64,000 nucleotides of DNA from an uncultured Actinomycetota bacterium (GCA_963816485.1 CAWFKU010000004.1:642454-706453); one strand, 5' to 3'. Positions 29,074 through 51,749 are shown, counted from the stretch's first letter. Notes: generated by a model not told the origin, from the sequence alone. Program-made: numbers and translations.

Positions 29074-29130
29074 ACATTAGTACTGGCCACAGGAATATTT
29101 CGTTGCTACTTTCGTCATTGATCATCTTCC

Positions 29131-29154
29131 CGTGGACCGGGTCGTGGACCGGGT
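29131..29154 (+). repeat. Tandem 12-mers CGTGGACCGGGT x2, 58 nt downstream of the attL core (arm-type site candidate)
   Basis: Direct reading. The same offset and near-identical 12-mers are found after attR (51714). Confidence 0.7.
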
Positions 29155-29295
29155 CGCCTGATCGGCCGGCCGGGTGCCCTGATCGCCGGTCACTGACGGT
29201 GATGGCGACAGGTGGTGCGGTGCTCCTGGCTGGCAGGCGGGGGCTGCGATCGGGGAGCGCGACGCGAGAATTAGCCTTGTATGGGCTGGTTTCGG

Positions 29296-29800
29296 CTAGC
29301 CGTGCGGTCCCCTGGTTGCCTCTCGGCTGCCGGTGGCCTGGTGCGGCCGGATGGCTGTCGGACAGGCCGGTGACCCGTCAATGAGAAGCTCCTGCGGTAA
29401 CTCTGTTCTCCGGAGCCGGATACCCAGTGTTCGAGCAGTCGCCCGGTCACCTCGGCTCGGCAGGAGCGCGGCGACGATGCCCCTGCCGCGTGCGGCCATA
29501 CGGCTGATCCTGGTGGCGACTGCATCCAATCACCTGTCGCTGTCAACGCTGCGGGTCATGGTTTCGTCGGAGGACCACCGCTGTCTCCGGAATGGATCAT
29601 GGTGCCTATCTGCAGGCGCCACGAGCGGAAAGAGGCTGGTTTGGCCAGCTGCATTCCCACGGTCTCGCGCCCGTGATCGGCGAAGGTGATCATCACGGCG
29701 ACGGCGGCCGGGCCGTAGATCTTGACCCAGCGCACCCGAGCTGAACTGCTTGAGCAGAACGGCCGCGGAACGGTGATGGGTCATCTTGAACCTGCCGAGA
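29296..29800 (-). pseudogene. Possible heavily decayed DDE (rve-type) transposase/integrase remnant
   Basis: Pieces across three minus-strand frames read ITFADHGRETVGMQLA, TMIHSGDSGGP, ISRMAARGRG and AIRPHQ. They occur in the order expected for the D..(SR.vGw), HSD.G, SMSr.G and RPH motifs of IS3/IS481-like catalytic cores. This is motif-level resemblance only. Confidence 0.3.
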
Positions 29801-30054
29801 GAAGCGAATCCCCCAGTCAAGGAATGGCGGTGACCTGCTCGCCAGGAGCCAAGGTCCCCGGTACTGGCCCTGCCCTCGATCCCGGCTCGCCTGGCAAAGG
29901 GACGAGACCAAAGGGGCGGGCGGCCGGGACGTTGGGCTCTACCGGGCCGCGCGTCCGGCAGCCACGCTGGGGCGACTAGAGGGCGGTCGCTTCCCGGTCA
30001 CGGGAGCGGCTGCGCTATTGGCGCACCGATGCGAGTCGAAAGGCGGCGGTTCCG

Positions 30055-31267
30055 ATGAGGAGGCGCTCGGCGGCATTAGCGATCGGAAGGCTCGTCCGGG
30101 TGCTGCCCGTTGTCGTACTCGCCGCGGGCGTGGCGGCTGTCCCGGCGGCTGCGGGGGCAGTCGGCGCCGCAGCGGCGCCAGGCTCCGGTCACCGCGCGGC
30201 CGCTCCAAGCACGTTCCGCGGTACCTGGCGGCTGCTGCCGAGCGCACCGGTGACCAGTCTGCCGGCGTCGTGGGCGGTGTCCCATGCCTGGACCGGGCGG
30301 CACCTGATCGTGCACTATGCCCTGCTGGGCTCCTCGCAGGCTGGGAGCCGCGCCGTCACGTTCTCCTTTACCCCGGCCGGCAATGCCTGGGCGAAGCTCC
30401 CGGCCGGCCCGAAGCCCGTGCCTGCTCAAGGTGACGACGCCGCGGCGTGGACCGGATCCCGGATGCTCGTCTACGGACTGACGGGCGGAGCGTACTCGCC
30501 GGCCAGCAACACCTGGCAGCGCATCGCGCGGCCCGGCAGGCCGCCGAGCCAGATCAGCGGCTGGACCGGCAGCCGGCTGGTGGTCTGGGACGAGATCTGC
30601 TGCGGCATGACCGTCAACACCGCGGAGGTCTACAACCCGGCGGCCGATGCCTGGCACACGTCGACGTCGCCGCTGGACAAGCGGTCGGGCGCGATGGGTG
30701 CCTGGACCGGCAAGGAACTGGTCATCTTCGGCGGCTTTTCCGGCTTCCCGGCCGGAGGCAGGGTCTTCAGGGACGGCGCCGCGTACAACCCCGCGACGGA
30801 CACCTGGCGGCGGCTGCCGCCGATGCCGCAACGCCGCGGCGGCGGGACGGCGGTCTGGGACGGCAGGGAAGTGCTATTCCTCGGCGGCACGGGACCGGGG
30901 ACCAGCCAGCCTTCACTGCGCGGCATGGCATTTAACCCGGCGACCAACAACTGGCGGCTGCTGCCCGTTATGCAGTACCGGCGAGCCCGGCTTCGCGGCG
31001 GTGTGGACCGGTCGGGACGTCCTGGTGTGGGGCGGGCTGTCCGGGCATCTGGGCGCGTGGGTCGTCCCGCCGCACGGCGAGGCGTACAACCCGGCGGCCA
31101 ACCAGTGGAGTGCGCTGCCGAAGTCACCGTTGCAGGGCCGTGAGGTCGCCGTCGCCGTGTGGACGGACCGCCGGTTGATCGTCTGGGGCGGCTACATCCC
31201 GGGGCCAGGCCAGTCCGTGCAGCGGACCTTCCTCAACGGCGCCGCATTCACCCCGCGCCAGCCCTGA
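30055..31267 (+). pseudogene. Secreted Kelch-repeat protein, frameshifted near 30975-30990
   Basis: Signal-peptide-like N-terminus. Repeated W(T/D)G..(L/V)(V/I).(G)G ... YNPA(T/A)(D/N).W units. ORF 30055..31143 loses the repeat pattern after NNWRLLPVMQY. The pattern resumes in ORF 30647..31267 (EPGFAAVWTGRDVLVWGG...AYNPAANQWSALP). Confidence 0.7.
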
Positions 31268-31395
31268 CATTGCCGTCGGGCGCGGCCCTGGGCCGGAAAA
31301 GATTCGCGATGCACACGTACTCCGTCCGCGCCATCGTGGCACTGGCTCAGTACAGGCCGGACCTCGGGGTAGGACTGCGCGACGCTGGCCTACCG

Positions 31396-31564
31396 CGTCG
31401 CGACCGGAGCGCAGGTGTGGGTCGCGCGGTACAGCGGCCACGGCAGGGCGCGTGACACCGCCTTCGCGGTGGCCACCGGCTCTGGCGGCGGGGTGTTCGT
31501 CACCGGGAGCAGCGCCGTCTCGGCGTCGCAGGCCGGCTACGAGACCGTCGCCTACGGCGGCTAG
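31396..31564 (+). pseudogene. C-terminal fragment of an SBBP-type beta-propeller repeat protein
   Basis: The frame ending at TAG 31562-31564 reads ATGAQVWVARYSGHGRARDTAFAVATGSGGGVFVTGSS...YETVAYGG. It matches the repeat unit of the 33244-34669 gene, with no start codon or signal peptide. Confidence 0.55.
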
Positions 31565-31941
31565 TGGACCGGGCGGCCCGATGCATCGGCTGGGCGCCCT
31601 GATCGTCGGCCCGGTCATCAGGTGCGCCCTCGCTCCGGCTAGGTCCCGCGATCTCGTGGCACCGTGCCCGTCCCGAGTCCTTGTCCTGACCGGCAAGCGG
31701 CGCCGGTGGCCGATGGCCAGCCATGCCACCGAATGCCCATCCGGCGTCCCCGGAGCAGCACCCGAACGCGGCCGGCTGGCGGGGTGGCTGGTTGCGGGCA
31801 AGCGTTATCCCGGCGCTGCTGGAGGGCAGCCTTAAGTACCGAGTCATTGCACCACGCTTACGGCTCCGATCTGTGAGCACCAATGAACAGCCTGTCGTGA
31901 TCTCGGCACCAGGTGATTAGCAGACTTCTGGGAGCATCGAA

Positions 31942-31978
31942 AGCAGGAGGCCGGGCGGCTCGCTCCGGCCTCCTGCTT
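31942..31978. terminator. 13-bp GC-rich stem-loop
   Basis: AGCAGGAGGCCGG (31942-31954), 11-nt loop, CCGGCCTCCTGCT (31966-31978). It lies between gene remnants and the convergent epimerase gene. Confidence 0.4.
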
Positions 31979-32178
31979 GGTGCTGGCGATTAGCGGGCGT
32001 GCGTCTCACGCCCCCGGGTCAGCGCCCCCGGTGCGGTCGGCCAAGACCGGGAAGGACCTGCGTGCCCTCAGCCTGAACGGCGGGCCCCGCCGGCCTTCCT
32101 CGAGCCTCCCGAGCTGCCCGAGCCCAGCCTGACGTGGGGCACCTGGTAGTTCCTATCTGAGTAGGCGTGCGCCGTCGG

Positions 32179-33172
32179 TCATGGCGCGAGCCCGCCGCGC
32201 ACCGTGTCGCGCAGCGCCTCCAGCGCGGTGAACCGGGGCGACCAGCCGAGCAGCTCCCTTGCCCGGGTCGTGCTCATGATCGCTGGCCGGCTCACCGCCT
32301 CCGCCCAGCCGGCCACGCCCGGGAGGGCGGGTAGCGCGGTCAGCAGCCTCGCGGCGGCCTGCGCGGGAGCGGCGGGCAGCGGCACCGGCAGCAGCCCGAG
32401 CTCGCGGATGATGCCGGCCGGGGTGACGATGCCGTCGGCGGCGATGTTGTAGGCGCCGGGCGGCCCCGCGCCGACCGCGCAGAGCAGCAGCGCACTGCCG
32501 ACGTCCTGCTCGTGCACGAGCTGCAGAGGCAGCGCCGGCGCGGCGACGGCTAGCGAGATCGGCGGCCGGACCTGATCACGGCGTCGGCTAGGCGCCGGCC
32601 GAGCGGCACCAGCGCGCCGGGCAGCAAGTCCTTGGCCCCTACGCTGGCGCGGGCCGACCACGATGCACGGCCGGAGCAAGTAGAGCGCAGGCTGCCCGGG
32701 ACCGGCGGCCTCGGCGTTGAGCAACTGCTCGAGCTCAGCCTTCTGGCGCGCGTAGAACAACCGCGCCGCCGGCCGCACTGGCCACTCTTCGGTCATCTCG
32801 GCTGGATTGTCGCGATGGAATCCGTAGGCGGCGACCGACGAGGCGTAGACGAAGCGGCGGGCGCCTGCTGCCGCAGCAGCGCGGTACGCGTTCAGCGTCC
32901 CCTCGACATTGGTCTGCTCGATCTCTCCCGGTGGCTCTACGCCAGTGACCATGAACGCCAGGTGCACGACGACGTCGGCCCCGCGGAACGCGGCAGCCAG
33001 GGTCGTGGGGTCACGCACGTCGCCGCGCCGGTAGAGCAGTTTCGTCCAGCCGCGTGCCGCAGGATCGAACGGGCGCCTAGCCACGCCCGTCACCAGCCCG
33101 ATCCGGGAGTCGGCCTGAAGCAGCGGAATCAGGCCGAACCCGAACGTTGCCGGTCGGTCCGGTCACTGCCAC
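32179..33172 (-). pseudogene. NAD-dependent epimerase/dehydratase family gene with an N-terminal frameshift (and a probable internal out-of-frame stretch)
   Basis: ORF 32179..33093 carries DVVVHLAFMV, YASSVAAYG and YARQKAELE (YxxxK). The Rossmann N-terminus VAVTGPTGNV(G)FGLIPLL lies upstream (to GTG 33172) in another frame. Residues around 32550-32640 read better in an alternate frame (GAKDLLPGALVPLGRRLADAV). Confidence 0.6.
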
Positions 33173-33243
33173 GGCCTTTCGCCGGGCGTTACGTGCAAAG
33201 GTTGAGGCGAATTACGAACGCTCGAAGGTGAGGGGATCACGCA

Positions 33244-34669
33244 ATGCGCGGAACCATGAGGCATGCGTGCGCCGCGATAGCGGCGGTCGCGACGCTCGGC
33301 GGGCTCGGAGTCCTCGGGGCCGGGGCCGCCAGCGCGGCTGGAACCGCCAGTCCGGCAACGGCCCTCTCGGCGGCTGTTGGGGGCGCTCGGCTGTGGGTGA
33401 GCCGCTACGACGGCCCGGGCCACGGCTTCGACGGCGCCAGCGCGGTGGCGGTGACCGGGGGTGGCCGTAAGGTGTTCGTGACGGGAACCAGCGGGCGCAT
33501 GGCCGCCACGATCGGCTACGACGCCTCCACTGGCGCGCGGCTGTGGGTCAAGCGGTACGGCGGGCCCGGTGACCGCGGAGCCAACGGCGAGGCGGTCGCG
33601 GTTAGCCCGGATGGCGGCACGGTGTTCATGGCCGGGTTCAGTTCCGGTGCCACCTCACGCGATGACTACGTCACGATCGCGTACAACGCCGCAACCGGGG
33701 GGCGGCGCGGCGGCGCACTACAACGGCTCGGCCAGCAACGGCGATGAGGCATTCGCCCTGGCGGTCTCACCGGACGGCAAGACCCTGTTCGTCACCGGGC
33801 AGAGCGCCGGCGTCGGCTCAGGCGCCGACTACGCCACGATCGCCTACAGCACGGCCACCGGCGCGCGCCTGTGGGCGGCGCGGTACAACGGCCCCGGCAA
33901 CAGCTACGACACCGCGAGGTCCCTGGCGATCGGGCCTGGCGGCCACAGAGTATTCGTGACGGGGTTCAGCACGGGGGCGAGTACTGCCGGGCAGTACGCC
34001 ACGGTCGCCTACGACGCTGCCTCCGGCAGGCAGCTCTGGGTGCGGCGGAGCCCTGGCCCGGGCCTCGCCTTCGCTTCATCGGTTGCGGTCGGTCCGGGCG
34101 GCGGCCGGGTGTACGTCACCGAGACCAGCGGCATCACCGCCGCGACCCTGGCCTACGACGCGGTCAGCGGAGCGCGGCTGTGGGCCACGCGGTATCGGGG
34201 CCAGGACTCCCGGGGTGCCTTCGCCGCCAAGGTGGCCGTCAGCCCGGACGGCGACACGGTATACGTCGCCGCCACGTCCGGACAGGTGGTCAGCGACGAC
34301 TACGCCACCATCGCCTACAACGCCAGCACCGGTGCGCGAAAGTGGCTCCGGCTCTACAACGGTCCCGGCAACAGCGTGGACGACGCGACCGCCCTGGCCG
34401 TCAGCCCGAGCGGCACGGTCTACGTCACCGGCGCGAGCAGCAGCGGCAGCGCGACCGCGACTGACTACGCCACGGTCGCCTACAGCGCCGCTGGCCGGCA
34501 ACTATGGGTTGGCCGATACAACGGCCCGGCCAACGGCGAAGACCACCCAGCCGCGATCACAGTCAGCTCGGCAGGCAGCCGAGTGTTCGTCACCGGCCAG
34601 AGCCTCGGCGCCACGACCTCCGGCCACAACGCCGGCTTCGACTACGCCACCGTCGCCTACTCCGGCTAG
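33244..34669 (+). pseudogene. Secreted SBBP-like beta-propeller repeat protein, disrupted near 33697-33715
   Basis: Signal peptide MRGTMRHACAAIAAVATLGGLGVLGAGAASA. About 9 repeats of DYATIAY(N/S/D)A.TGARLW..RYNGPGNS.D.A.A.AVSPDG..V(F/Y)VTG.S. ORF 33244..33747 and ORF 33569..34669 are the two halves. The junction repeat lacks the LW residues, which suggests a small out-of-frame deletion in a G-run. Confidence 0.7.
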
Positions 34670-34994
34670 CCCATCCGCGACCTCGGCCACCCAAGAGCAG
34701 GCTGGCGACATCCTTTACACGGCCACCGCCACACGGCGCCAGTTCTGGGCCGTGGGCAGCTAGTTCTCATCGTCGCGAGGAAAGACCGTCACAATGCGCC
34801 GCTGCCAGCCGTAACACCACCGTTCCGAGCCTTTGCCGGATCGGCCGCCGAAGGGGCCCCGGCTGATGGCCGGCCAGGCGGTCAGGGCGAGAGAACATCG
34901 CCTGAGCTGGCTTGGCGCCGCCGCCACCAAGCCCGCGCCGTCACTGCCAGTACCAGCGGCGACGAGAACGAGTTCACTAAGTGCGGCTGCCGTA

Positions 34995-36377
34995 TTAGTG
35001 GTGGCGCAGCCAGACGCCGAAGTCCTGTCCCGCGTTAGAGAGGACTGAGGCGTCCGCCACGACCGCCCCGGCATGGGTACCGTCGGTGGTGTCAATCCAC
35101 CGGCTGGTGGCCCAGGGGCCGAGGATGCTGCCATGGCCGCCGCGGTAGGTGGTGGCTTTGCTGCCGGTGAACTGCCATATCTGAGTGTCCGCCGGTGGCG
35201 GGCTCATGGTGCTGTTGTCGAACATCGCGAGCACTTCGGCTGAGTTCAGCGGCATCTGAGCGGCATATGGCGCGGCCACCGTGACGGTCTGGCTGGTTCC
35301 CCTGGTGGGATCGCTGACGGTGAAGGCGTAGTGGCCGTTCCGGTCGTAGTAGATGCTGACCGCCAGCTGGTCACCGGGCGCGGGGTTCACAGCGAACGTG
35401 CCCTGAGCCGCGTTGGAGGCGAAGCTGATGCTGCCCGCGCCGCCGCCGGGAAGGACCTCGATGTCCGCGTACGGCCGCGGGGTCGGCCCGCCGTTGTGGC
35501 CGAGGCTGACCAGCGCCGTGCCGCCGTTGGCGGCCGGTGCCTGCGCTGGGGGCACCGTCATGGTCGTGGCGATATACCGGAAGGGGCCCGCGCTGTCTGA
35601 GTAGCCGGCGAAACCCGAGGTGTAGGTCAGCGGCAGCGCACGCAGCCAGACGCCGAAGTTCGCCCCGCCCTTCGACAGTCCGGACGGGCTCCTGACCACC
35701 GCGCCCGTAGAGGTGCCGGTGCTGGTCTGGATCAGCTGCCTGGTTTGCCACGGGCCGGTCACCGTGCCGCGGGTGCCGCTGTAAGTGGTCAGCCGTGCGC
35801 CAGTTACCTGCCATAGCCGCGTGTCGGCGGTTGGAGGCGGCACCGGCCCGCCACCCGCGTTGCCGGATAGCGAGGCCACGTTATAGACGGCTTTGCCGGT
35901 CTTGACCCGCACGGTGCGGGTGACGTCCTGGGTAACATCCACGGCGGTGAAGTAGATATGGCTGTTGCGGTCGTAGTAGATGCTGACCCGGAGCCGATCA
36001 CCGGTCTTCGGGTTCATCGCGAGTGGGGTCAGTATCTGGCCATCGCCCCATCCGACGGTGCCGGAACCGCCGCCAGGACGAACCACGATGCTGAAGGGCG
36101 GACTCATGGGCGCGGCGTTTCGCAGCGTCATGATCATCTGGCAGAAATAGCTCTGGGACGGGATGACCTGCGGGACGGTCACCGTGGCCTCGACGTACCG
36201 GAACCACCGCCCCGTGGACACGTAACCCGCATCGTTAGTGGTGTAGACCGACGGGCCCAGCGACCCCAGGGCCGCGATAGCCGGGGACGCAGCCCCGGCA
36301 AAGCCGAGAGTGACGGACGTCATGCCCGCCGCTGCTGTGGCATACAGCGCGTGGGTGAAGTGGCTGCGCATCGACAA
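34995..36377 (-). CDS. Secreted protein made of two homologous ~200-aa domains (G1 glutamic-peptidase / concanavalin-like fold suspected)
   Basis: Signal-like N-terminus. The two halves align: AGYVSTGRWFRYVEATVTVPQ...DRLRVSIYYDRNSHIYFTAVD...RLWQVTGARLTTYSG...FGVWLR versus AGYSDSAGPFRYIATTMTVPP...DQLAVSIYYDRNGHYAFTVSD...QIWQFTGSKATTYRG...FGVWLRHH. The fold guess is weak. Confidence 0.7.
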   Translation of the reverse strand: MSMRSHFTHALYATAAAGMTSVTLGFAGAASPAIAALGSLGPSVYTTNDAGYVSTGRWFRYVEATVTVPQVIPSQSYFCQMIMTLRNAAPMSPPFSIVVRPGGGSGTVGWGDGQILTPLAMNPKTGDRLRVSIYYDRNSHIYFTAVDVTQDVTRTVRVKTGKAVYNVASLSGNAGGGPVPPPTADTRLWQVTGARLTTYSGTRGTVTGPWQTRQLIQTSTGTSTGAVVRSPSGLSKGGANFGVWLRALPLTYTSGFAGYSDSAGPFRYIATTMTVPPAQAPAANGGTALVSLGHNGGPTPRPYADIEVLPGGGAGSISFASNAAQGTFAVNPAPGDQLAVSIYYDRNGHYAFTVSDPTRGTSQTVTVAAPYAAQMPLNSAEVLAMFDNSTMSPPPADTQIWQFTGSKATTYRGGHGSILGPWATSRWIDTTDGTHAGAVVADASVLSNAGQDFGVWLRHH

Positions 36378-36925
36378 GACCTCCTGCCGTGCAGCCCAGG
36401 GCCGGATAACCGTGGCCTATTATCAACAATGGCCCCGTGGCCGGTCCCAGGCCCAATCCTCGGTTGCTCCGCATTCTGCTGGCCGCTGGTACGCCAAGTC
36501 GGGAGTAGGACGTCACTCCAGTGACCACCCAGCAATTTGATTTTCCCGAGATCCCAGACCATCAGGGCAGGGCCATTCGGCCTGTCGGCCACGGCAGACG
36601 ACTCCCGTGAGGGCCGGATACGCACGAGAGAACGACCAGACAGAGCAATAACTGCTGGAGGCATCACCGGAACTCATAGATCAGCGCGTAGCAGGTCGCG
36701 CCCGGCGGGTCGACCGAAAAGACGCTACTGCGATCGCGGTCAGCGCTCATGCGCCGTCTCTGGCTGGAACGCGGAGATGTGCCAGGCGGGCCAGTGACTC
36801 ATGACCGGGTCCAGCCGGCTGTTGCCGACCGGGCGGATCGTTGCGTGTGCATGGCTCGGGCGCTGCCAGAGCGGGGAAGTGGGTCGCCGGGATGCCCGGG
36901 ACTGCGTTCGGGCTGGGCTACCCGG

Positions 36926-37236
36926 GAGCTTGCGGAACTCAGCCGTGGTCAGGGTCGCCCTGGTGATCGAGGCCAGGGTTCCGCGCTTGATCGTGCCGTG
37001 CTCAGAAACCACGGCCGCCCCGCCCTCGGCGTCGCGGTCGACGGCGTGGCTTCCCTTAACCCGCGCCCTCGAAGCCTGCGACCCGCGGTCCGCGACATCG
37101 CGGACCGGCAGGTCCGACAGCGCCGGACTGAGGCAGCAGGCAGCGCGGACGAGGCCCACCAGCGGCGTGCTGAAGACATAGAGCGCCGGGTCGTCCGCTT
37201 CATCCAGGTAGAGTCCGACGGCCTCCGCAAGGCTGG
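36926..37236 (-). pseudogene. Decayed hicB-hicA toxin-antitoxin remnant (paralog of 50923-51365)
   Basis: SLAEAVGLYLDEADDPALYVFSTPLVG..SPALSDLPVRDVA...VKGSHAV.RDAEGGAAVV...GTIKRGTLASITRATLTTAEFRKL. It parallels the intact pair (SLAEAVGLYLDEVDDPERYVSSTPLV / SPALSDLPGRDVA..VKGSHAVYGDADGRVAVVPGLGTIKRGTLASILRRAGLTTDEFLKL). The HicB N-terminus is missing, there is an internal shift, and the stop codon is lost. Confidence 0.65.
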
Positions 37237-37283
37237 GCCTTGTGGCTGGCCGTCGTGGTCACCGTGCGGATTGCCGCACCTAA

Positions 37284-37715
37284 TCACCCGGCCGGTTTCC
37301 ACGCGGGATAAAACGCGGACCAGAAACCTGATGCTGTCGGGTACCTGGTGATCCACGGGGCGCGGTGCAGGCCGCGAACCGCCGCCTCCGCGTACGGAGA
37401 CGGCTGCCGGGTCCCGGCTGCCGAGGGAGCGCCGATGATCTGCTTGCTGCCGATCCGCCGCCACGGGCCTGCGAAGCCGCCGCCGATGAGCTTGGCCCAC
37501 AGCCCGTCGCGGTAGCCGTGGATCAGGATCGATCCGCCGTTGCTCTCCGGGATGTAAGCGATCGCCGGCGCATTCCTGGTATGACCGCCGACCGACGTCC
37601 ACCGCCAGTGCGCGAATGAGGACGTCGTCCGGACGCCGTGGTCGGTCCATCCGGCCGCGACCTCCCTCCGCCTCGCTGCGCAGCCCTCCCTTCCCTGGGC
37701 TCGCAATAACCCCAC
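37284..37715 (-). pseudogene. Fragment of a beta-propeller (PLL/DUF346-like repeat) protein
   Basis: WTSVGGHTRNAPAIAY....SILIHGYRDGLWAKL...GPWRRIGSKQIIGAPSAAG has the W..(I/V)GG....AP...(V/I)..(G).DG.LW periodicity. High GC3, but only about 1.5 repeats and no credible start. Confidence 0.3.
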
Positions 37716-38013
37716 CGTTCCGCGACCGCAGGTGACCTGTCACCACCTGCCCGTCGGTGTCAACCTAGAGAAACGGCCGTAGGGTCGGCCGGGGAGGCCC
37801 GGGCAAGAGGGCTCTCCGAGCGGGTAATGATCAGTGGCCGTGTTCAGGCAGCCACCGGCCCGTCCTGGCTGCGGCGTCCACCTAGGTGAATTCGGGCGGT
37901 AGGTGATGACAGGTCACCTGCCGGGGTGTGAGCCTAAGATCGCGATGCAGCGGCCGGGTAACGGCTGCGGCGGAGTCGATGAACCGCCTGGCAAGGGATG
38001 CCAGTGAAACTGG

Positions 38014-39237: not shown

Positions 39238-39349
39238 TGGGCCTGCGGCTTCAGCCGCGCATCGCGTGGCCGATGCTTTTCCGTTGGCCAGACGGCTTCC
39301 GTCGTCCTCGCCCTCGGCGTCTGTTGGTCTCGAAGTTGGTGGTTCTCCT

Positions 39350-40291: not shown

Positions 40292-40293
40292 TG

Positions 40294-44300: not shown

Positions 44301-44416
44301 CGCGCCTGGGCCAGGCCCGGCAACGCGCCGGCGAGCGTGGCCGCCGGCGGCACAGGACCGACCAGGGCGGCGGCGCCCGGGTCAAGCCAGCTCGGCAGCG
44401 TCTGGACCGCGCTCAT
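41337..44416 (-). pseudogene. Fusion oxidoreductase: degenerate NuoF/RnfC-like N-domain + GltD-like (4Fe-4S + FAD/NAD(P)) + C-terminal 2x[4Fe-4S] ferredoxin. Reading frame broken once near 42955
   Basis: ORF 42689..44632 (ATG 44416) ends in out-of-frame text after GKRIGIAGS. ORF 41337..43109 continues with PAGLTAAYYLRTFGHEVEILEEQEKAGGMLRYGIPAYRLP..., IVVGGGNVAIDVA, VYAGGD, then CLRCDVCIGCGLC and CIGCGACTQVCP. One missing base in ggctcggcccagcc (expected GSGPAG) restores a single ~1026-aa ORF. This is either a genuine frameshift or a homopolymer sequencing error. Confidence 0.75.
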
Positions 44417-44940
44417 GGCGAGGTGTCCTCGCCGCCCGGCGGCTCGGCGAGGATGTGCCGGGCGTAGCGCTCGCGGCGCGGGTCCGGCAGCTCGTTGGCC
44501 TCGCCGAAGGACAGGCAACCGGTCACGCACTTGGTGACGCAGGCGGGCTGCAGCCCGGCGTCGAGCCGGTCCATGCAGTAATCGCACTTGACCACCTTGT
44601 TCGTGGCGGGGTCCCACTGCGGAGTGCCCCACGGACAGGCCGCGATACAGCTCTTGCAGCCGATGCAGAGGCTGTCCTCGACAAACACGATGCCGTCCTT
44701 CTCACGTTTTTGCATCGCGCCGGTCGGGCACGCCCGGACGCACCACGGGTCTTCGCAGTGGAAGCACGGCATGAACACGAAGCGGGTCAGGGGCAGTCCG
44801 TCGGCCTCGACCGGTTCCAGCGCGATGACCCGGCACGGATCGGGGCCGGGACCGAGCTGCTTGTTGGTCTTGCAATGGACTTCGCAGGCCAGGCACCCGA
44901 TGCAGTTGGCCTCGTCGTGGCGAAGCTCGTATTTGCTCAT
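44413..44940 (-). CDS. 4Fe-4S dicluster subunit (DmsB/PsrB-like electron-transfer subunit)
   Basis: CIGCLACEVHC, CFHCEDPWCVRACP, CIGCKSCIAACP, CDYC...CVTKC. ATGA-type overlaps with both neighbours. Confidence 0.85.
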   Translation of the reverse strand: MSKYELRHDEANCIGCLACEVHCKTNKQLGPGPDPCRVIALEPVEADGLPLTRFVFMPCFHCEDPWCVRACPTGAMQKREKDGIVFVEDSLCIGCKSCIAACPWGTPQWDPATNKVVKCDYCMDRLDAGLQPACVTKCVTGCLSFGEANELPDPRRERYARHILAEPPGGEDTSP

Positions 44941-47090
44941 CCGGCTGCTCCTTCCGGTGTCCGGCGCCTCACCTGCACGACCGTCTCGGTCAGCGCATTG
45001 CCGCCGCCGGCGGGATCGAAGTCGTAGAGCTTGCCGTGCTGCAGGCGCTGGTCGGCGACGCCGAGGCCGCGGGCGCGGGTGGCGAGTGGCACCGTGGCGC
45101 CGTAGCCGTGCAACATGAACACCGCGTCGGGATGGATCCAGCGGGTGACCTTCGCCGGCAGGCAGCCGGTGTAGCGGCCACCGCCGTTGACCTCCACCTC
45201 GTCGCCGTCGGCGATCCCGAGCGCCGCGGCACGGTCGGGGTGGATCCAGAGCACCTGTTTGGGTGCTCTCTCGTTGAGCAGGGGATTGTTGAGCGACTGG
45301 CCCTGCGCGAGCGTCGCCGTCTTCGCGAACAGCAGCGTGAACTTCTCGCCCGTCGGCGCATCTTTGGGGACGTACGCCGGCAGGCTCTCAAGCCCGGCCT
45401 GCTTGAGGACCTCGCTCTCGATCTCGATCTTCCCTGAGGGCGTCGGGAACGTGAGCTCGTCGCGGGGGATCAGTTTCGGAGCCGCCGCCAAGCCGACCAG
45501 GCCGGCCTCGCGCATCTTCGAGACGGTGACGCCGGTGCCATCGAGCTGGTAATTCCACAGCTCCTCGATGGTCTCGAAGTCAAGCGCCTGTCTGATGCCC
45601 ATCCGGTGCAGGATCTCGCGGAAGATCCACCACGCCGGGCGGCTGTCGAAGCGCGGTGCGATCGCCTGGTCGCGCATGGCGAAGACCGGCACCGGGCCGT
45701 TCATCTGGCAGAGGATGTTCGCGCGCTCCAGGTAGGTCGACTCGGGGAGGATGACGTCGGCGAACCAGCCCAGTTCCGAGTAGCGCACGTCGATCGAGAC
45801 GAGCAGCTTCAGCTTCTCGATCGCCCGTTGCGTCGCCTCCGGGTCGGGCATGCCGGTGAACGGGTCGTGGCGGTAGGCGAAGTAGGCGCCGATCCCGTAC
45901 GGCTGCCCCGTCTCCATCGCGGCGAAGGCCTGATGCAGCATGCCGATCGCCGGATCCCATTGCGGCCGCTTGCCGCCAGCGCCATCCACGCGCGGCTCCC
46001 TGACCTCCGGCACCCGATCTATCAGATGGTTCAAGCCCTTGCGGCCGTAGTGCTCGGGCGGCTTCCCCAGCACGCATCCACCCGGAAGCTCGATGTTGCC
46101 CATCAGCGCGTTCAGGATCAGCGCCGACCGGCTCACGTAAAACGACTGCTTGTGACGAGCTGACATCCACCCCGGATGGAAGATCACATGTGGTGCGTCC
46201 GCAGCGATCTCGGTCACGAACGCGCGAAGCTCGGCGGCGGGAACGCCGGTGTGCGGCTCCTGCCACTCCGGCGTTGTGTCCTTAACCGCCTCCCGCAGGT
46301 AGTCCAGGCCGGAGACGAAACGGGCGACGAAGTCCTTGTCGTAGGCATCCTGCCTCAGGACCTCATGGATTATGGCGAGGTTCAGCGCGTAGTCGCTCTT
46401 CGGTCGCACCTGCCAGTAGCGGGTGGCCTTGGACGCCGTGATCGTGGCGCGCGGATCGATGTAGGTGCAGCGCATCCCCCTCGCCACCGCGGCCATGAAC
46501 GCCTTAGCCTCCTTGACCATCAGCGATTCGACGACATTGCGGCCGTAGAGCACGAGATGCTTGCAGTGCTGGTAGTCGAACAAGAGCCCTGCGGCGCCGA
46601 AGCCGTAGAGCGAGCGTGTGGCGTTATGAACATTGCCGGCGCAAGCGGCATCGTGATCGAAGTAGTTCGGCGAGCCAAGCGCCCGAACGAAGGTCTGGGT
46701 CAGGTCAGTAAAGGGGCCGCCACGATCGGAAAGCGCGATACCGCGCCCGCCGAAGACATCGATCGTCTCAGTCAGCTTCTCGGCGATGTAGTCGAGGGCC
46801 TCGTCCCAGGACACCCGCCGCCACTGGCCGCCGCCACGCTCGCCAGCACGGATCAGCGGCGCCTGCGGCCGCTCGTCGTCAGACTCCAGAAACAGGCCGG
46901 CCGCGCCCTTCGCGCACAGGCTGGCGCCGAGGGCCCGGTCGTGCGTATTGCCCTGCAGCCAGGTCACACGGCCGTCCTCGACCGTCACCTCCATCGGGCA
47001 ACGCACCGCGCACATGCCGCACATGCTGTAGACCGTGCGCCGGCCTGGAGCACCCACGCCGCTTACGTTCGGTGCCATAGGGGAAGTCAT
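44937..47090 (-). CDS. Molybdopterin (bis-PGD) oxidoreductase catalytic subunit, cytoplasmic (no Tat signal), substrate unknown
   Basis: ATG 47090 after GGAG. The N-terminal FS0 motif is CGMCAVRC...CAKG. A candidate Mo-ligand Cys is in FDHDAACAGNVHNATRSLYG. The C-terminal beta-barrel region reads LWIHPDRAAALGIADGDEVEV. No RRxF(L/V)K twin-arginine motif upstream. Confidence 0.85.
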   Translation of the reverse strand: MTSPMAPNVSGVGAPGRRTVYSMCGMCAVRCPMEVTVEDGRVTWLQGNTHDRALGASLCAKGAAGLFLESDDERPQAPLIRAGERGGGQWRRVSWDEALDYIAEKLTETIDVFGGRGIALSDRGGPFTDLTQTFVRALGSPNYFDHDAACAGNVHNATRSLYGFGAAGLLFDYQHCKHLVLYGRNVVESLMVKEAKAFMAAVARGMRCTYIDPRATITASKATRYWQVRPKSDYALNLAIIHEVLRQDAYDKDFVARFVSGLDYLREAVKDTTPEWQEPHTGVPAAELRAFVTEIAADAPHVIFHPGWMSARHKQSFYVSRSALILNALMGNIELPGGCVLGKPPEHYGRKGLNHLIDRVPEVREPRVDGAGGKRPQWDPAIGMLHQAFAAMETGQPYGIGAYFAYRHDPFTGMPDPEATQRAIEKLKLLVSIDVRYSELGWFADVILPESTYLERANILCQMNGPVPVFAMRDQAIAPRFDSRPAWWIFREILHRMGIRQALDFETIEELWNYQLDGTGVTVSKMREAGLVGLAAAPKLIPRDELTFPTPSGKIEIESEVLKQAGLESLPAYVPKDAPTGEKFTLLFAKTATLAQGQSLNNPLLNERAPKQVLWIHPDRAAALGIADGDEVEVNGGGRYTGCLPAKVTRWIHPDAVFMLHGYGATVPLATRARGLGVADQRLQHGKLYDFDPAGGGNALTETVVQVRRRTPEGAAG

Positions 47091-47636
47091 CGCAATCTCC
47101 GTCCCCGCGCCGCCATTGGCGTCAGGCCTCCGGGCCGCGCGGCGCTTGGCTGGCGGTGTACTTGTCCTCGCATCGATCGATCGTGGCACCCTCCCGGAAT
47201 GGCAGGCAGGGCCGTAGCGCCTGCTCCAAGGGGACCAATGGCCTCGCGAGGACCGGGGCGGCGAGGCAGCCGGGTAGGCGGGGGACTGTGCATCCGCGAC
47301 AGGGCGTCGGCACGCCCAGGGTCGTCGCCGTCGGCGGCGGCAATATCGTCGAGGCTTGGGCTTCGAAATCATGGTGGCCGAGGCCGAGGTGGCCGAGGAC
47401 GCGGGCGCCACTCAGTAAGCCCAGGCTCCCTTCAGGCACCCGATGAGCCGGGAGATCGCCGGCTCCCCAGGTCGCCGATCTCGTGGCCGGACCGCAGGTC
47501 CTTGACCAGGAGTATGGCCGTCCGATCTGGGCATCGACAACACCGGGCACTAGGAGGAGGTACCTATCCCGGCCGACGTCAACAGCACGCTGCAGACCGG
47601 CGGCGACGTGCCAGTGGAGGAAGCTGGCGGCATGTA

Positions 47637-48944
47637 ATGTCTTTCTCGCCAACTTCCAGCAAAAGGGGCCTGGCAGTGGATACTGGCCTTGCGCTTGTCG
47701 GTCTGACGCTGCTGCTCGTCGCCGCGGTATCCCGACCTCTGTCGAGCACGCCCATCACGCCCGCGATCGTGGTGGTCGCGGTCGGTGTTCTGGTCGGCCC
47801 GCTCGTGCTTAACGACCTGACGGTGCGACCCACGAGCTCGACGGTGCAGACACTCGCCGACGCGACGCTCGCGGTGGTGCTGTTCTCGGATTCCTCGCGC
47901 GTGAACCTGCGGGCGCTGCGGCGTGAGGCGTCGATGCCTGTCCGCTTGCTTGGCCTCGGTCTGCCGCTGACGATCGTGCTGGGTGGGCTGATCGCGGTTG
48001 CCCTGTTCGGCTCGTTCTCGATCAGCGAGGCGCTGATCCTTGGCGTGATCCTCGCTCCGACCGACGCCGGGCTTGGTAGCGCGGTCGTCACGGACACGAG
48101 GCTTCCGCAAGTTGTTCGGCAGTCGCTGAACGTCGAGAGCGGCCTGAACGACGGGATCTGCGTCCCGCTGCTGTTGATCGTGCTGGCTACCGTCTCCGGC
48201 GCTGGCAGCGAGTCCCACCCGTTGCGGGTGCTCGCCGAGGAGATCGGCTACGGGCTGCTCGGCGGGCTCGCTGCTGGCGCGCTCGCCGCGGCGGTTGTGA
48301 TCCTTGCCGGACGACGGCACTTGATCGACGATGCTTGGCGGCAGATCATTCCGTTGTCCTCAGCGGTGCTCGCGTACGGGATCGCGAACGCCCTGGGCGG
48401 TTCGGGATTCATCGCCGCGTTCGTAGCCGGCGCACTGTTCGGCCTGCTCGCTGGCGACCGAGCCGCGGGAATGATGCCCTTCACGGAGGAAGCCGGGGCC
48501 GCGCTCGACAACGTTACGTTCCTCGTGTTCGGTGCCGTGCTGCTCGGCCCGGCGTTCGAGCATATGAGCTGGCAGATCGCGCTGTATGCCGTGCTGAGCC
48601 TCACGGTCGTGCGGATGTTGCCGGTGGCGATCTCGCTGTGGGGCACTCACGCGCGGGTTCCGACGGTCGCGTTCATTGGCTGGTTTGGCCCGCGCGGGCT
48701 TGCGTCGATCGTGTTCGCGGTGATCGTCGAGGACGCGCATCTCCCTCACGCCGGGACGATCGTCGCGGTCAGCTACCTGACCGTCGGGCTGTCGGTCCTA
48801 GTACACGGGCTTTCGGCCGCGCCGCTGGTAAGTCGCTATGCCAGCTGGTACCAAGCCGCCGCGGAGAAGAGCCCTCCTGTGATGGAGAGCCAGCCAGCGC
48901 ACGAGCACCGGGCGCGGGGATCCGCCGCGGTGCCGAGCAGGTGA
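47637..48944 (+). CDS. Cation:proton antiporter (CPA1, Na+/H+ exchanger family)
   Basis: C-terminal part of ORF 46176..48944. ATG 47637 (or GTG 47676). LILGVILAPTDAGLG, SGLNDGICVPLL, WFGPRGLASIVFA. About 12 TM segments. Confidence 0.8.
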   Translation: MSFSPTSSKRGLAVDTGLALVGLTLLLVAAVSRPLSSTPITPAIVVVAVGVLVGPLVLNDLTVRPTSSTVQTLADATLAVVLFSDSSRVNLRALRREASMPVRLLGLGLPLTIVLGGLIAVALFGSFSISEALILGVILAPTDAGLGSAVVTDTRLPQVVRQSLNVESGLNDGICVPLLLIVLATVSGAGSESHPLRVLAEEIGYGLLGGLAAGALAAAVVILAGRRHLIDDAWRQIIPLSSAVLAYGIANALGGSGFIAAFVAGALFGLLAGDRAAGMMPFTEEAGAALDNVTFLVFGAVLLGPAFEHMSWQIALYAVLSLTVVRMLPVAISLWGTHARVPTVAFIGWFGPRGLASIVFAVIVEDAHLPHAGTIVAVSYLTVGLSVLVHGLSAAPLVSRYASWYQAAAEKSPPVMESQPAHEHRARGSAAVPSR

Positions 48945-49376
48945 CCGCTGGCCTAGGCCAGTAGCGGGTCGGCCATCATAGACAGCCATTCTCGGCGGCG
49001 CGGTTGGAGGTGACCACGGTCGAGGACCAGGACGGAACACTTTCTGCGGCTTCCTGGAACTGGCTCGCGACAACCTCGTGCAGCTGCGCACCGGGCACGC
49101 GTGCACGCTCGACGACATCGCCCGCGACCGCGCCGGCCGCGGTGAGGCGCTGACAGATGAGGTGCAGGTCATGCGCGAGATGGTCATTCGCCTGTACCCG
49201 CGCTGGGCACGTCTCATCACTGGTACCAGCCCATTGGCCATCACCGCATACGGCGCGGCCCGCGTCGCCCGGCGGTGTGGTCGCCGGGTGAGCACCTGGT
49301 GATCGACTGGGCGCACAGGGCGGGCGGGCTGGTGTTCTGCGCCCGCGGGTGCGGCAGCAGAAGCGAAGGCAATACG

Positions 49377-49475
49377 AAGGTCTTGACGGTGTATGCGCAC
49401 CACCACCCGCGGTCGTTCTGCCATGGCGTACTGGAATGGTTCACCGACGGCTTGCAGCGGGCCGGTCACACCAGC
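49377..49475 (+). pseudogene. N-terminal fragment of a flavodoxin-like-fold NAD(P)H oxidoreductase, start codon apparently ACG
   Basis: KVLTVYAHHHPRSFCHGVLEWFTDGLQRAGH matches the M-KVL-VYAHPEPRSF-N..L......L..AGH opening of this family. The codon before K is ACG, 5 nt after GAAGG. Family similarity stops after about 32 aa. Confidence 0.4.
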
Positions 49476-49901
49476 GGCGCGTCACGTCCGGGCATCGCGC
49501 AAGCCGTGATCCCAGGAGGCCTGGACGCCGAATCCGGGGCAGCCAACCATGTTGAGGAATCGGTGTCTGCCGCGCTGACCACCCGCGCGACGTGGCCTCC
49601 AGCCGGGATGACGACGGCCCTGTCGCTTCATAAGACCAGACGGCCGCCCGGCATGAGGGTCATCTACGCTCGTCCTGGCCGGTCCGTGCCAGCCTGGAAG
49701 CGGCGGTGAGAATGCCGGTCGCCTGGCGCGTCACCCCCAGCCAGTACCACATCCAGCCGCTTCGCCGGCGCGACCGCGCCAGCGCACCAGCCGGCTTGAC
49801 CAGGACGCTGGTTAAGGGCGGCAATGCAACCGGCCAGGAGGTTGCCGGCGCAGCCGCGTCAGCGGCGCCGCCTTGGTCGGCGCCGGGATCCGGGCCGCGC
49901 C

Positions 49902-50174
49902 CTAGCAGCGGGCTCGCTCGTGAGGCATCGAGCTGAGGTGCTCATCGAGCGCCGCCACGCCGTTGGCTAGCGCGGAGTGCGGCCCGCGGAGCTTCTGAAG
50001 CTCGGGCGACACCTGGTCGTAATTCAGGTTCGGGTCGTCGCCGCAGACCGGGCAGATGACCTCGTACTTGCCCGTGTAGCCGACCGATGTACGGCCATCG
50101 ACCACGCGGGCCGGCTGCGCTCGCAGAAACACGCCGTCGTGGTGCCCGGCGGCCCGATGACTGACATCCCCCAT
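49902..50174 (-). CDS. Small hypothetical protein
   Basis: MGDVSHRAAGHHDGVFLRAQPARVVDGRTSVGYTGKYEVICPVCGDDPNLNYDQVSPELQKLRGPHSALANGVAALDEHL. Protein-like composition. I recognise no family. Confidence 0.45.
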   Translation of the reverse strand: MGDVSHRAAGHHDGVFLRAQPARVVDGRTSVGYTGKYEVICPVCGDDPNLNYDQVSPELQKLRGPHSALANGVAALDEHLSSMPHERARC

Positions 50175-50922
50175 GCCGCCATTCTGCAGCGCGAGCCGCC
50201 CGCAGCAGGAATGGGCCAGATGAACACTAGGAGACAATCAGGCGCAATGCCGCCGAACTCCCGGCGCTCATGCCGGACCGGTAGGTCGCCGCCTGCCTGG
50301 CGCTCGCCCGTCCCATCGGTCGCGCGTCCGACCGTTTGAGTAAGTGATCGTGGCGGGTCACGGGGCCCGGACTCCTCCGTTCGAAGTAGACCGTGGACGC
50401 TTGCGGCCGCCTGGTTTCCGCCCGAAGCGTCCAGCAGCAGAACGCGTCCGAGGGCATGGCCGCCGAGATCGTGCCCGGCCAGGCTCGGATCATCGTGACG
50501 CAACCACGAACGACAACGCAAGGGAGACGGCGCGAGAACTGGCCGTTCCGTTGCCCTCACCCGCCGCGAATTTCGTCATCGGCCAGCCAATGCACGGTCC
50601 GGGGCGCTCCGGGCTGATTAACCGTATGGGTGCCGATCCGCCGGAGCTATCACACGCCGTCACCAGCGCTTCCGTGTGCTTGACGCGCCGGACCCGCCGT
50701 TCTGGGCGGCAACCCGGTCGCTGGCGTGGCGGCTCGTGGTGCGCCCGAACGGGTGGAGCTGTGGCGGCCAGGCGCGCAGCGGGCGCAGCTGACCGACGCG
50801 CTTTTCTGGTGACCGGATGTTATGCCGGGCTTGACGGTCGGGCTGAGGGCTCGCTGGTGGGTGCCGCGGATGGCGAGCTGGCGACAGGGGTCGCCGGAAT
50901 GCCCGGGACTGCCTAGGCTGCG

Positions 50923-51147
50923 CTAGTCGAGGAGCTTGAGGAACTCATCCGTGGTCAGGCCCGCCCGCCGCAAGATCGAGGCCAGGGTCCCACGCTTGAT
51001 CGTGCCGAGCCCGGGAACCACGGCCACCCTCCCGTCGGCATCGCCGTAGACGGCGTGGCTTCCCTTGACCCGCACCCGCTCGAAGCCCGCGGCCCGCAGG
51101 GCGCGCGCCACGTCGCGGCCCGGCAGGTCCGACAGCGCCGGGCTCAC
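50923..51147 (-). CDS. hicA: Type II toxin-antitoxin system HicA family toxin
   Basis: GTG start overlapping the hicB stop. SPALSDLPGRDVARALRAAGFERVRVKGSHAVYGDADGRVAVVPGLGTIKRGTLASILRRAGLTTDEFLKLL (YcfA/HicA pattern). Confidence 0.85.
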   Translation of the reverse strand: MSPALSDLPGRDVARALRAAGFERVRVKGSHAVYGDADGRVAVVPGLGTIKRGTLASILRRAGLTTDEFLKLLD

Positions 51148-51365
51148 GCAGCAGGCAGCGCGAACGAGGTGACCAGCGGCGTGCTGGAGACGTATCGCTC
51201 CGGGTCGTCGACTTCATCGAGGTAAAGCCCGACCGCCTCCGCGAGGCTCGCGAGCGCCTCATCGATGGTCCGGCCCTGGCTGGCGACATCGACCTCCAGG
51301 CACTGGGCCACGTACCAGTCCTCTTCCCGGTGCACTGCGGCAGTCAGGGTCCGCGACTCGGCCAT
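51144..51365 (-). CDS. hicB: Type II toxin-antitoxin system HicB family antitoxin
   Basis: LTAAVHREEDWYVAQCLEVDVASQGRTIDEALASLAEAVGLYLDE is the typical HicB N-domain. It lies immediately upstream of hicA. Confidence 0.8.
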   Translation of the reverse strand: MAESRTLTAAVHREEDWYVAQCLEVDVASQGRTIDEALASLAEAVGLYLDEVDDPERYVSSTPLVTSFALPAA

Positions 51366-51500
51366 GAGCTCAGCCTAACCCAGGCAGGCCCGAGCTCGTT
51401 TGGGCTGTCGGGCCAGCCCGGAACGCCGAGCGCCCCAGCACCCGGACCTGCACCTTGACTACTGGCGGTTACCTGGTCAGGCCAGGCCGGCTGGCGGGCG

Positions 51501-51524
51501 CGTGGAACGGGTCGTGGACCGGGC
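51501..51524 (+). repeat. Tandem 12-mers CGTGGAACGGGT CGTGGACCGGGC, 90 nt upstream of the attR core (arm-type site candidate)
   Basis: Direct reading. Same family as 29131-29154 and 51714-51749. Confidence 0.65.
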
Positions 51525-51613
51525 GGAGTGCTCAACGGGTGCATCGTGTGCATTCTGTGCGTTCGGGCGTGCTATCTGTGCAGCTAGCGCGTCTGGTGCT
51601 GGCGGGCGTGTTT

Positions 51614-51656
51614 CTCGTAATGAACAGGTCGTCGGTTCGATTCCGACAGGCGGCTC
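51614..51656 (+). repeat. attR core: orphan copy of the 3' 43 nt of tRNA-Thr(CGT)
   Basis: ctcgtaatgaacaggtcgtcggttcgattccgacaggcggctc is identical to 29031-29073. No tRNA 5' half precedes it. Confidence 0.9.
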
Positions 51657-51713
51657 TCTTTCCCGCGGTTCAGTGATGTTTATCGATTTAAATTTCGACG
51701 GCTTGTCAATCTC

Positions 51714-51749
51714 CGTGGAACGATTCGTGGAACGAGTCGTGCGGTCGGG
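51714..51749 (+). repeat. Tandem 12-mers CGTGGAACGATT CGTGGAACGAGT (plus a degenerate third unit), 58 nt downstream of the attR core
   Basis: Same spacing from the core as the 29131 repeat after attL, preceded by a comparably AT-rich spacer. Confidence 0.65.

Follow-up and report, generated by a model that had tools for sequence, protein, structure and literature searches.

Behind a tRNA-Thr(CGU) gene, the 64,000-nucleotide stretch of an uncultured Actinomycetota bacterium analysed here (GCA_963816485.1, CAWFKU010000004.1:642454-706453; the whole stretch is called the window and all positions refer to it) carries tandem 12-mers (CGTGGAMCGRNT) that start 58 nt past both copies of a 43-45 bp core of that tRNA. 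We propose, with considerable confidence, that these 12-mers are arm-type sites in the attachment site attP of a family of mobile elements integrating into tRNA genes, and that the locus is a stack of integrase-less islands behind tRNA-Thr. The first of them, island 1, spans 22.5 kb (29074-51613) between two attachment (att) sites. It is followed by an arm, named F, that probably belongs to an older element.

Exact matches to CGTGGAMCGRKT are found at 29131, 29143, 51501, 51714 and 51726, that is, five in the 64-kb window versus 0.12 expected, a number reached by none of 100 shuffles, and the copy at 51513 (CGTGGACCGGGC) is one base off. All copies are on the plus strand. Since a relaxed tandem search on both strands yields only three pairs in 64 kb, the 12-mers are confined to the att regions; a search for CGTGGAMCGRKT allowing two mismatches was dropped, being mostly noise (64 matches versus 43 expected). 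The core (CTCGTAATGAACAGGTCGTCGGTTCGATTCCGACAGGCGGCTC) is present at 29031-29073 and 51614-51656 and represents the 3' part of tRNA-Thr(CGU) from the anticodon loop onward, where the exact identity block between the left and right att sites (attL and attR) also begins (45 bp, 29029-29073 = 51612-51656). The pairs following the cores start at the same offset (29131-29073 = 58; 51714-51656 = 58), while the remaining pair ends 90 nt (51614-51524) and starts 113 nt before the second core. The initial annotation of this DNA had described three tandem sets at these offsets, and all six units and the three distances were recovered upon recomputation. Its view of the 57-nt spacers separating cores and 12-mers stands only as regards composition: they are AT-rich (GC 0.40 for the A type after attL and 0.42 for the F type after attR, versus 0.69 for the window), but 23 of 57 equal positions are not above shuffled controls (p ~0.1). 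The two spacers appear to be alike in length and composition, not in sequence, and as they are indistinguishable from shuffles, we abandoned both the idea of a copied arm and that of a close relationship between the arms. As for the degenerate third unit claimed at 51738-51749, it is conserved among F copies but is no real match to the 12-mer.

The DNA on each side of the core has a reproducible anatomy (Table 1). Among nine aligned P arms, which precede a displaced core, 20 of the first 21 positions of the 12-mers are invariant with one A/G exception, and GTGC boxes and core are likewise conserved. In the window, seven such boxes occur within 72 nt versus a background of 0.6 per 100 nt; they include a conserved GTGCAGCTAGCGCG at 51578 and may form a second class of protein-binding site, perhaps for a recombination directionality factor (RDF). 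On the P' side, the eight F-type right flanks that were aligned all retain spacer, 12-mers and the box GCTACGGTCAGTAATC (~135 nt), and diverge past that length at nested breakpoints. The left arm of island 1 (A type, 29074-29203) displays the same parts, and a P' arm 72% identical to it lies behind the core of a different tRNA in L014 (comparison loci are designated by L and a number). These features lead us to propose an attP of ~340 bp, composed of a P arm of ~160 bp, a core of 43 bp and a P' arm of ~135 bp. The arm sites differ in sequence from the core and are located on both of its sides at fixed distances, 113 nt before and 58 nt after. The same layout is observed in L119-L122, L023 and L164, with 112-113 nt from 12-mer to displaced core in the window, L119, L120 and L122, and the hybrid junction P arm-core-P' arm of the window (51459-51789) is also present in L120, L122 and L023.

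Several smaller features accompany these arms. GTGC boxes are also seen in the P arms of L015, L016, L019, L023, L069, L090, L097 and L104, and certain P' arms (L016, L015, L097) have TGCAC boxes, in inverted orientation, after the 12-mer. On both arms, the 12-mers are bordered by outer boxes that read CTAC-N5-GTNAC or GTCAC-N5-GTGAT; elsewhere these boxes are near-perfect palindromes, such as GGTCACGCAGCGTGACC in L105, and L164 has no obvious box. They resemble GntR-type operators, and a GntR domain is predicted in many integrases of the family.

The pair recurs far beyond this locus. When one genome per species was scanned for the tandem pair, at least 118 loci with 131 tandem sites were obtained among the matches listed, mostly in metagenome-assembled genomes (MAGs) of uncultured Actinomycetota and Streptosporangiaceae. 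The commonest context is a pair followed by phased GTGC boxes, a GTGCAGCTAGCGCG box and a tRNA 3' fragment, as at 51501-51656 in the window. In another, a complete tRNA is followed by 30-60 nt, the pair, 20-55 nt and an open reading frame (ORF) starting with ...GHIEQLPSGSWRVKVY.... By automated criteria, at least 81 of the 131 listed sites belong to a P-type (67) or P'-type (14) context with fixed spacing; the others are mostly missed att sites or in-frame coding repeats. In 53-60 of the listed sites, the pair also has a T-loop motif at the corresponding distance.

The link between 12-mers and integrase also emerged from a test on the integrase side that was blind to the motif. Metagenome contigs were searched with an alignment of four family integrases, which returned at least 519 relatives among 600 pattern matches listed in the JGI metagenomes, and the best 80 were retained. 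In 62 of these 80 loci, an intact tRNA (Lys-UUU, Met-CAU or Thr-UGU) is followed by 28-48 nt, the tandem pair YRTGGNNYGNNNYRTGGNNYG, ~30 nt and the start codon of the integrase gene; the other loci with enough upstream sequence show near-variants by eye. The variable dinucleotide of the motif (AC, AA, GA or CA) is the same in both units at all 62 loci. It covaries best with integrase residues 1, 10, 13, 25 and 32, numbered from the N-terminal GHIEQLPSGS motif: W10 and K/R13 go with GGACC, and F10 and S13 with the other variants (59 integrases). Five of the top 10 predictive columns fall in the first 36 (hypergeometric p = 1e-4 for these 59 integrases, phylogeny uncorrected). The first 36 columns (~33 residues) also form the block with the highest mean ratio of mutual information to entropy (MI/H), 0.43 versus 0.22-0.36 elsewhere. 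Finally, a complete element of 5.8 kb (L164) bears 12-mers on both arms. Together with the same pairs found 112-113 nt upstream of displaced cores, the 62 integrase loci and the N-terminal covariation argue for the arm-type sites that the initial annotation had suggested.

The ORF behind the P' pair encodes a tyrosine recombinase of 475-520 aa with a Phage_integrase catalytic domain (Pfam PF00589). In many members (e.g. L118, L115, L067, L062, L164), a GntR winged-helix domain is inserted between the N-terminal and catalytic parts; the integrase of L032 has it at the C-terminus. In the tRNA-Thr(CGU) subfamily (L048, L206, L207), a Cys/His-rich segment with 12 invariant Cys/His (residues 124-171) replaces GntR and may bind zinc. 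The family counts 968 proteins at E <= 1e-30. No relative above ~30% identity was found in phage and plasmid collections and no curated model of this family in NCBIfam; the searchable literature gave only unrelated primer matches to the 12-mer sequence, and a literature search for GntR-containing integrases gave nothing relevant. Pfam models of arm-binding domains did not match the integrase at E < 0.01. AlphaFold2 predicts for a tRNA-Thr(CGU)-type member an N-terminal succession of beta(7-11), beta(17-25), beta(32-39) and alpha(42-58), with a predicted local distance difference test score (pLDDT) of 56-87 for this block. Full-length lambda Int and Tn1549 Int are among the best Foldseek matches of the whole-integrase model, which is weak.

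Binding of the 12-mers by this integrase N-terminal domain, rather than by an excisionase (Xis), is the best-supported reading and would agree with the covariation. That they are instead bound by an accessory protein, such as an excisionase/RDF or a repressor of the element, or that they serve as an operator of the int promoter, appears unlikely to us. Tandem direct repeats are typical of Xis sites, as in lambda and L5, the P' pair covers the likely promoter of int, 30-50 nt ahead of its start codon, and the complete element L164 encodes an XRE/ImmA pair. However, the sites are present on both arms and not on the P arm alone, the variants of the motif covary most with integrase N-terminal residues, and no conserved Xis-like gene was seen in compact elements. 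An operator role would in any case be compatible with Int binding, the two not being mutually exclusive. A TAnnnT-like hexamer (e.g. TATCGT or TACCGT) is also seen ~7 nt before the integrase start codon in L123-L202, a position that suggests leaderless integrase transcripts; if they are leaderless, the P' 12-mers would overlap the -35 region and allow autoregulation by Int.

The nature of the DNA to the right of attR could be addressed in close relatives. Starting from ricT, the gene flanking the locus on the left, orthologs led to loci L119-L122, in which RicT is 95-97% and the flanking DNA 90-92% identical to the window. Each has ricT and tRNA-Thr(CGU) followed by differing gene content, with one to three exact copies of the core, showing a high turnover at this tRNA. 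In L119 and L121, the F arm immediately follows the tRNA, at +58; in L120, L122, L023 (MAG CAVTYS01) and the window, it comes after a second core. The block hicAB-P-core-F of L120 and L122 is 88-91% identical to that of the window. In L119, F stands at the start of a 6-kb island that has a P arm and core of its own at the other end (16852-17007), and a third core is followed there by 12-mers and a truncated integrase gene. In CAVTYS01 (L002 and L023), a stretch of 20 kb contains three F-type arms, and two of these have no tRNA core next to them. Displaced cores have not changed at any of 43 positions within blocks that are ~10% diverged, which suggests continued use or frequent renewal. Altogether, these data support the view that F is the left arm of an older resident mobile element. 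Its position beside the tRNA in L119 and L121 shows that F was probably either resident before the arrival of island 1 or left there by a later excision of island 1.

One may argue that the F flank (51657-51790) is ancestral chromosome (B'), the 12-mers being coincidental or the flank having been copied by elements. Its presence right after the tRNA in L119 and L121, a divergence between genomes of ~10% that equals that of core-genome flanks, and the lack of an integrase or distal att site with F in the window would agree with this idea, which we nevertheless hold to be very improbable. Indeed, two of the three F-type arms of the CAVTYS01 array have no tRNA core, F leads an island that ends with a P arm and core in L119, the nested breakpoints all keep exactly the ~135-nt arm, and the parts of F and its +58 spacing match the A-type arm, with 12-mers like those of integrase-linked P' arms. 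The dissimilarity of the A and F spacers implies, moreover, that nothing was copied between them. The initial annotation had regarded the occurrence of F directly after the tRNA in orthologous loci free of any island as contrary to its interpretation. F does follow the tRNA in L119 and L121, but neither locus is island-free, and this observation loses its force because F is the left end of an att-bounded island in those genomes. The claim that DNA right of attR starts with an element-type arm is upheld by the triple occurrence of F in CAVTYS01 and by the closed island of L119.

The tRNA-Thr(CGU) gene itself has a feature that the initial annotation did not mention, an exact tandem duplication of 24 nt (29007-29030 = 29031-29054). 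The repeated part, which is the first part of the core, begins at the anticodon loop and reaches as far as the beginning of the T-loop. The Rfam model treats the duplication as a long variable-region insert, and the tRNA would have a long variable-arm-like segment copying the anticodon stem-loop. The relatives L119-L122 have a normal gene without it. ARAGORN calls a 98-nt tRNA-His here, a miscall due to the internal duplication; on the basis of the Rfam model we discarded it and retained tRNA-Thr(CGU) with an insert. A deletion running from the T-loop GGTTC of the tRNA to the GTTTC in front of a displaced core would agree with the duplication, and one may speculate that it is the scar of the imprecise loss of a former proximal element. 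Uniqueness of the duplication to the window could, together with a source that looks like an uncultured soil actinomycete and with relatives that are all MAGs, raise the suspicion that cores, arms and duplication are mis-joins of metagenome assembly. We consider such an artefact extremely unlikely: four other assemblies independently reproduce the same spacing (P-core-P'F in L120, L122 and L023; F beside the tRNA in L119), and sequence differences between the arms are not expected from collapsed repeats.

Island 1 is itself composite. On its right, a toxin-antitoxin (TA) pair, HicA and a DUF7387 protein, abuts the P arm. A truncated version of this right-end module (36920-37240) is 83% identical to the modules of L120 and L122, and its homology stops abruptly inside the DUF7387 gene in hicB position. 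It reads as the scar of a lost internal junction, and because of it island 1 is taken to comprise at least two accreted units.

With these elements, the following scenario can be drawn, in which the order of events, as well as any present-day mobility in trans, is what we infer from the loci compared. A lambda-type heterobivalent tyrosine integrase of ~475-520 aa would grip the 12-mers with its N-terminal beta-beta-beta-alpha domain, while the C-terminal domains would carry out strand exchange within the core, with the anticodon loop as its probable position. Each integration would restore the tRNA from the core copy of the element and shift the older core distally. An older element would first have left its P' arm (F) beside the tRNA; one or two later elements would then have entered between the tRNA and F; these would finally have lost integrase and internal junction, giving a 22.5-kb island resembling a cis-mobilizable element (CIME), at the right end of which the hicAB TA pair and the P arm would remain. 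Integrase genes, located directly after the P' arm in intact elements, would have been deleted later, and right ends made of TA plus P arm would persist. Such persistence is proposed because short units between P-core sites elsewhere are TA pairs: RHH/PIN and ParE in L035, HigB/HigA-like in L055 and PSK/PIN in L121. TA modules seem, from these comparisons, to be the most persistent part of decayed elements. Arrays with att sites 1-4 kb apart are observed in L035 (three P-core sites within 2.4 kb), L055, L121, L104 and L105, and the TA types found alone in short units are RHH/PIN, ParE, Gp49/HTH and PSK/PIN.

Stepwise construction is not the only way to obtain such an array. A pre-assembled composite of island 1 and the F element could have arrived whole, or arm recombination could have shuffled modules, possibilities that we rate as rather unlikely. 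The 88-91% identity of hicAB-P-core-F between the window, L120 and L122, while tRNA-proximal parts differ, would suit them, and the transfer of whole tandems of a CIME and an integrative and conjugative element (ICE) is documented (PMC5704250). However, the shared block has diverged as much as the flanking chromosome, as expected if a resident F or hicAB-P-core-F was inherited vertically and local turnover came afterwards, and the state with F beside the tRNA exists in L119 and L121. Also in favour of these alternatives, L013 and L005 each associate, in one array, P arms with cores of different tRNAs (Met-CAU-type, Thr-UGU-type and Thr-CGU-like), which is unexpected from simple serial integration at one tRNA and not explained by it. 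At a tentative and rather doubtful level, tRNA-anchored arrays of small integrase-less att units in these uncultured soil Actinomycetota, many of them a mere TA pair beside a P arm, could also grow by an integron-like capture that uses lambda-type attP sites. Integrases working in trans would then collect, stack and reshuffle the units; they would be 'trivalent', with a GntR or Cys/His module that, in addition to the arm-binding and core-binding domains, would read the outer CTAC-N5-GTNAC boxes or the phased GTGC boxes.

A number of points weigh against arm-type sites and stacked islands as proposed here. No integrase was found in the window by tblastn with four and then with more than 60 family integrases, and Pfam scans of selected candidate ORFs revealed no excisionase or transfer gene in it; without integrase, excisionase or transfer gene, nothing in the window is tied to an active system. 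For island 1 in particular (29.07-51.6 kb), Pfam analysis of selected candidate ORFs and tblastn showed no integration, excision or transfer gene, and tblastn at permissive thresholds on the stretches after both P' arms gave only noise, with no integrase remnant. To the right, no third core (up to five mismatches), P-box, F-spacer box or relaxed tandem 12-mer is found at 51.75-64 kb, and the distal P arm-core-B' closure that the F-led island of L119 possesses is absent within the window. Homologs of the 53-63 kb genes in more distant relatives (82-85% identity) have different surroundings, and the 10 kb around them contain no att site, so that these genes may be ordinary chromosome; DNA attributable to an element on the right of attR would amount to ~135-500 bp only. 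The covariation is confounded by phylogeny and by the target tRNA, and island 1 combines a P' arm of GGACC units with a P arm mixing GGAAC and GGACC; because of this mixture, the dinucleotide is no strict specificity code in this subfamily. The whole AlphaFold2 model of the integrase has a mean pLDDT of 64 and a predicted template modelling score (pTM) of 0.38. Finally, the comparison sequences are MAGs or metagenome contigs throughout.

Intact elements are nevertheless found at this very target. In related MAGs with the same ricT neighbourhood, L206 and L207 encode intact integrases of 474/475 aa beside tRNA-Thr(CGU); their P' arms are of another type with a 38-nt spacer. Their other genes encode a TrwC relaxase (1296 aa) or a type IV coupling protein (T4CP) of the VirD4/TraG type, gene content that makes them ICE-like or similar to integrative and mobilizable elements, and not actinomycete ICEs (AICEs), as far as predicted functions tell. 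In L122, a 275-aa Phage_integrase gene (11053-11880) follows the tRNA on the opposite strand without P' 12-mers; its match to the family is weak (35% over 83 aa), and a different type of integrase may use the same tRNA hotspot.

Table 1. Features of the tRNA-Thr(CGU) locus, island 1 and the F arm in the window.
Feature	Position	Strand	Basis or remark
tRNA-Thr(CGU) gene, integration target	28976-29073	+	Rfam tRNA model 60.5 bits, anticodon CGU
attL core	29031-29073	+	tRNA 3' part; identity block with attR 29029-29073
P' arm A type, 57-nt AT-rich spacer	29074-29130	+	GC 0.40
P' arm A type, tandem 12-mers CGTGGACCGGGT x2, proposed Int arm-type sites	29131-29154	+	
Outer box GTCACTGACGGTGAT, A-type P' arm	29189-29203	+	analogous boxes in related P and P' arms
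Island 1 cargo	29204-50922	.	Pfam; integrase homolog not found by tblastn
Truncated second hicA/hicB right-end module	36920-37240	-	84-89% identical to 50974-51248
hicA toxin	50923-51147	-	Pfam
DUF7387 protein in hicB antitoxin position	51144-51365	-	Pfam
P arm outer box CTACTGGCGGTTAC	51459-51472	+	homology of nine aligned P arms begins here
P arm tandem 12-mers CGTGGAACGGGT CGTGGACCGGGC	51501-51524	+	113 nt before core
P arm, seven phased GTGC boxes	51528-51599	+	spacing 11, 9, 9, 12, 9, 18
attR core of island 1	51614-51656	+	displaced tRNA 3' fragment, no tRNA gene
P' arm F type	51657-51789	+	57-nt AT-rich spacer containing GTTTATCGATTTAAATTTCGA
F-type tandem 12-mers	51714-51737	+	
F-type conserved degenerate unit	51738-51749	+	no real 12-mer match
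F-type outer box GCTACGGTCAGTAATC	51774-51789	+	
F module extension	51790-52170	.	common to L119, L122, L002 only; nested breakpoints

The genes of island 1 identified with Pfam encode a Kelch protein, an epimerase, a beta-propeller repeat protein, a peptidase A4, a CMD protein, a gluconolactonase, a glucose dehydrogenase, an Fe-S/molybdopterin oxidoreductase cluster and a Na/H exchanger. Internal DNA repeats at 31368-34660 (families D2, D4 and D7) reflect a region coding for repeat-rich beta-propeller/PQQ-like proteins, and an 18-nt periodic repeat is present at ~20.7-20.9 kb (20672-20899); both are unrelated to the att sites. On the right of the second core, the F module extension contains no recognisable gene, and the genes encountered code for a PAP2 protein, three BON paralogs, HSP20, DoxX, DUF308, an AI-2E transporter and an LPG-synthase-like protein. 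The three paralogous BON-domain genes are located with HSP20, DoxX and DUF308 at 53936-58810 (repeat families D1, D3 and D10). The ORF of the AI-2E transporter (59969-61528) is extended by a C-terminal BON domain; homologs in relatives cover ~74% of it, without the extension.

The proposed attP can be compared with those of lambda and L5, in which a core also lies between P and P' arms with short repeated sites that are distinct from the core and include tandem pairs. The integrases of these phages similarly have a small N-terminal domain of beta-sheet plus helix (predicted here) and a C-terminal catalytic domain, their attP spans a few hundred bp, and L5 integrates, as here, at the 3' part of a tRNA gene. 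In contrast, the integrases of the present family are at most ~30% identical to any integrase in the phage and plasmid collections searched and are larger (475-520 aa), with a GntR or Cys/His-rich insert; all arm pairs are in direct orientation and are accompanied by phased GTGC and outer boxes.

At the level of the locus, CIMEs keep attL and attR and have lost integration and transfer genes (ICESt1-type; PMC5704250). As in ICESt1/CIME of Streptococcus thermophilus and the pathogenicity islands of Streptomyces, island 1 is att-flanked without such genes and lies in tandem with another element remnant with which it shares the internal att site, and same-site relatives of the window include elements with a relaxase or coupling protein; unlike there, the window has no ICE, the lineage is an uncultured actinomycete one and the integrase family is another. 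The structure is thus best viewed as tandem accretion of CIME type, a known phenomenon, in an apparently new family of elements and integrases. Arrays with repeated fragments of a small-RNA gene are known, for example the ssrA islands of Dehalococcoides (PMC3146451). Similarly to our locus, serial direct repeats of the 3' end delimit islands whose content varies strongly between close strains, whereas the target here is tRNA-Thr(CGU) and the arms are readable, so that one can assign each junction to the attL, hybrid (P-core-P') or attR type. The actinomycete ICEs pSAM2, SLP1 and pMEA300 use a tRNA-specific tyrosine integrase encoded beside attP (PMC2440964). Actinomycete hosts, tRNA specificity and int adjoining attP are thus common to these AICEs and the present family, but no Rep or FtsK/TraB-type transfer gene is found in the window, and the intact relatives carry a TrwC relaxase and a VirD4-type T4CP. 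The arm repeats of pSAM2 also differ from the 12-mers. Finally, chromosomal integron arrays that TA cassettes stabilise resemble L035, L055, L121 and the hicAB of the window in having short att-delimited units, many of them TA-only, beside a fixed anchor; they differ in that the sites here are large, of attP type with arms, and not attC hairpins, the anchor is a tRNA, and there is no resident integrase or Pc promoter.

To conclude, tandem accretion of islands is a known route of genome growth, for which our analysis offers a signature: tandem CGTGGNNCGNNT located ~113 nt upstream and 30-58 nt downstream of a tRNA 3' fragment. This signature types junctions as attL, hybrid or attR in genomes and MAGs of soil actinomycetes even where no integrase survives, making the order of accretion readable. 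Besides, the analysis defines a large and apparently uncharacterised integrase family, whose predicted arm site and specificity variants provide a hypothesis for orthogonal integration tools. In the window, it marks the 29.07-51.6 kb region as horizontally acquired and possibly still excisable in trans.

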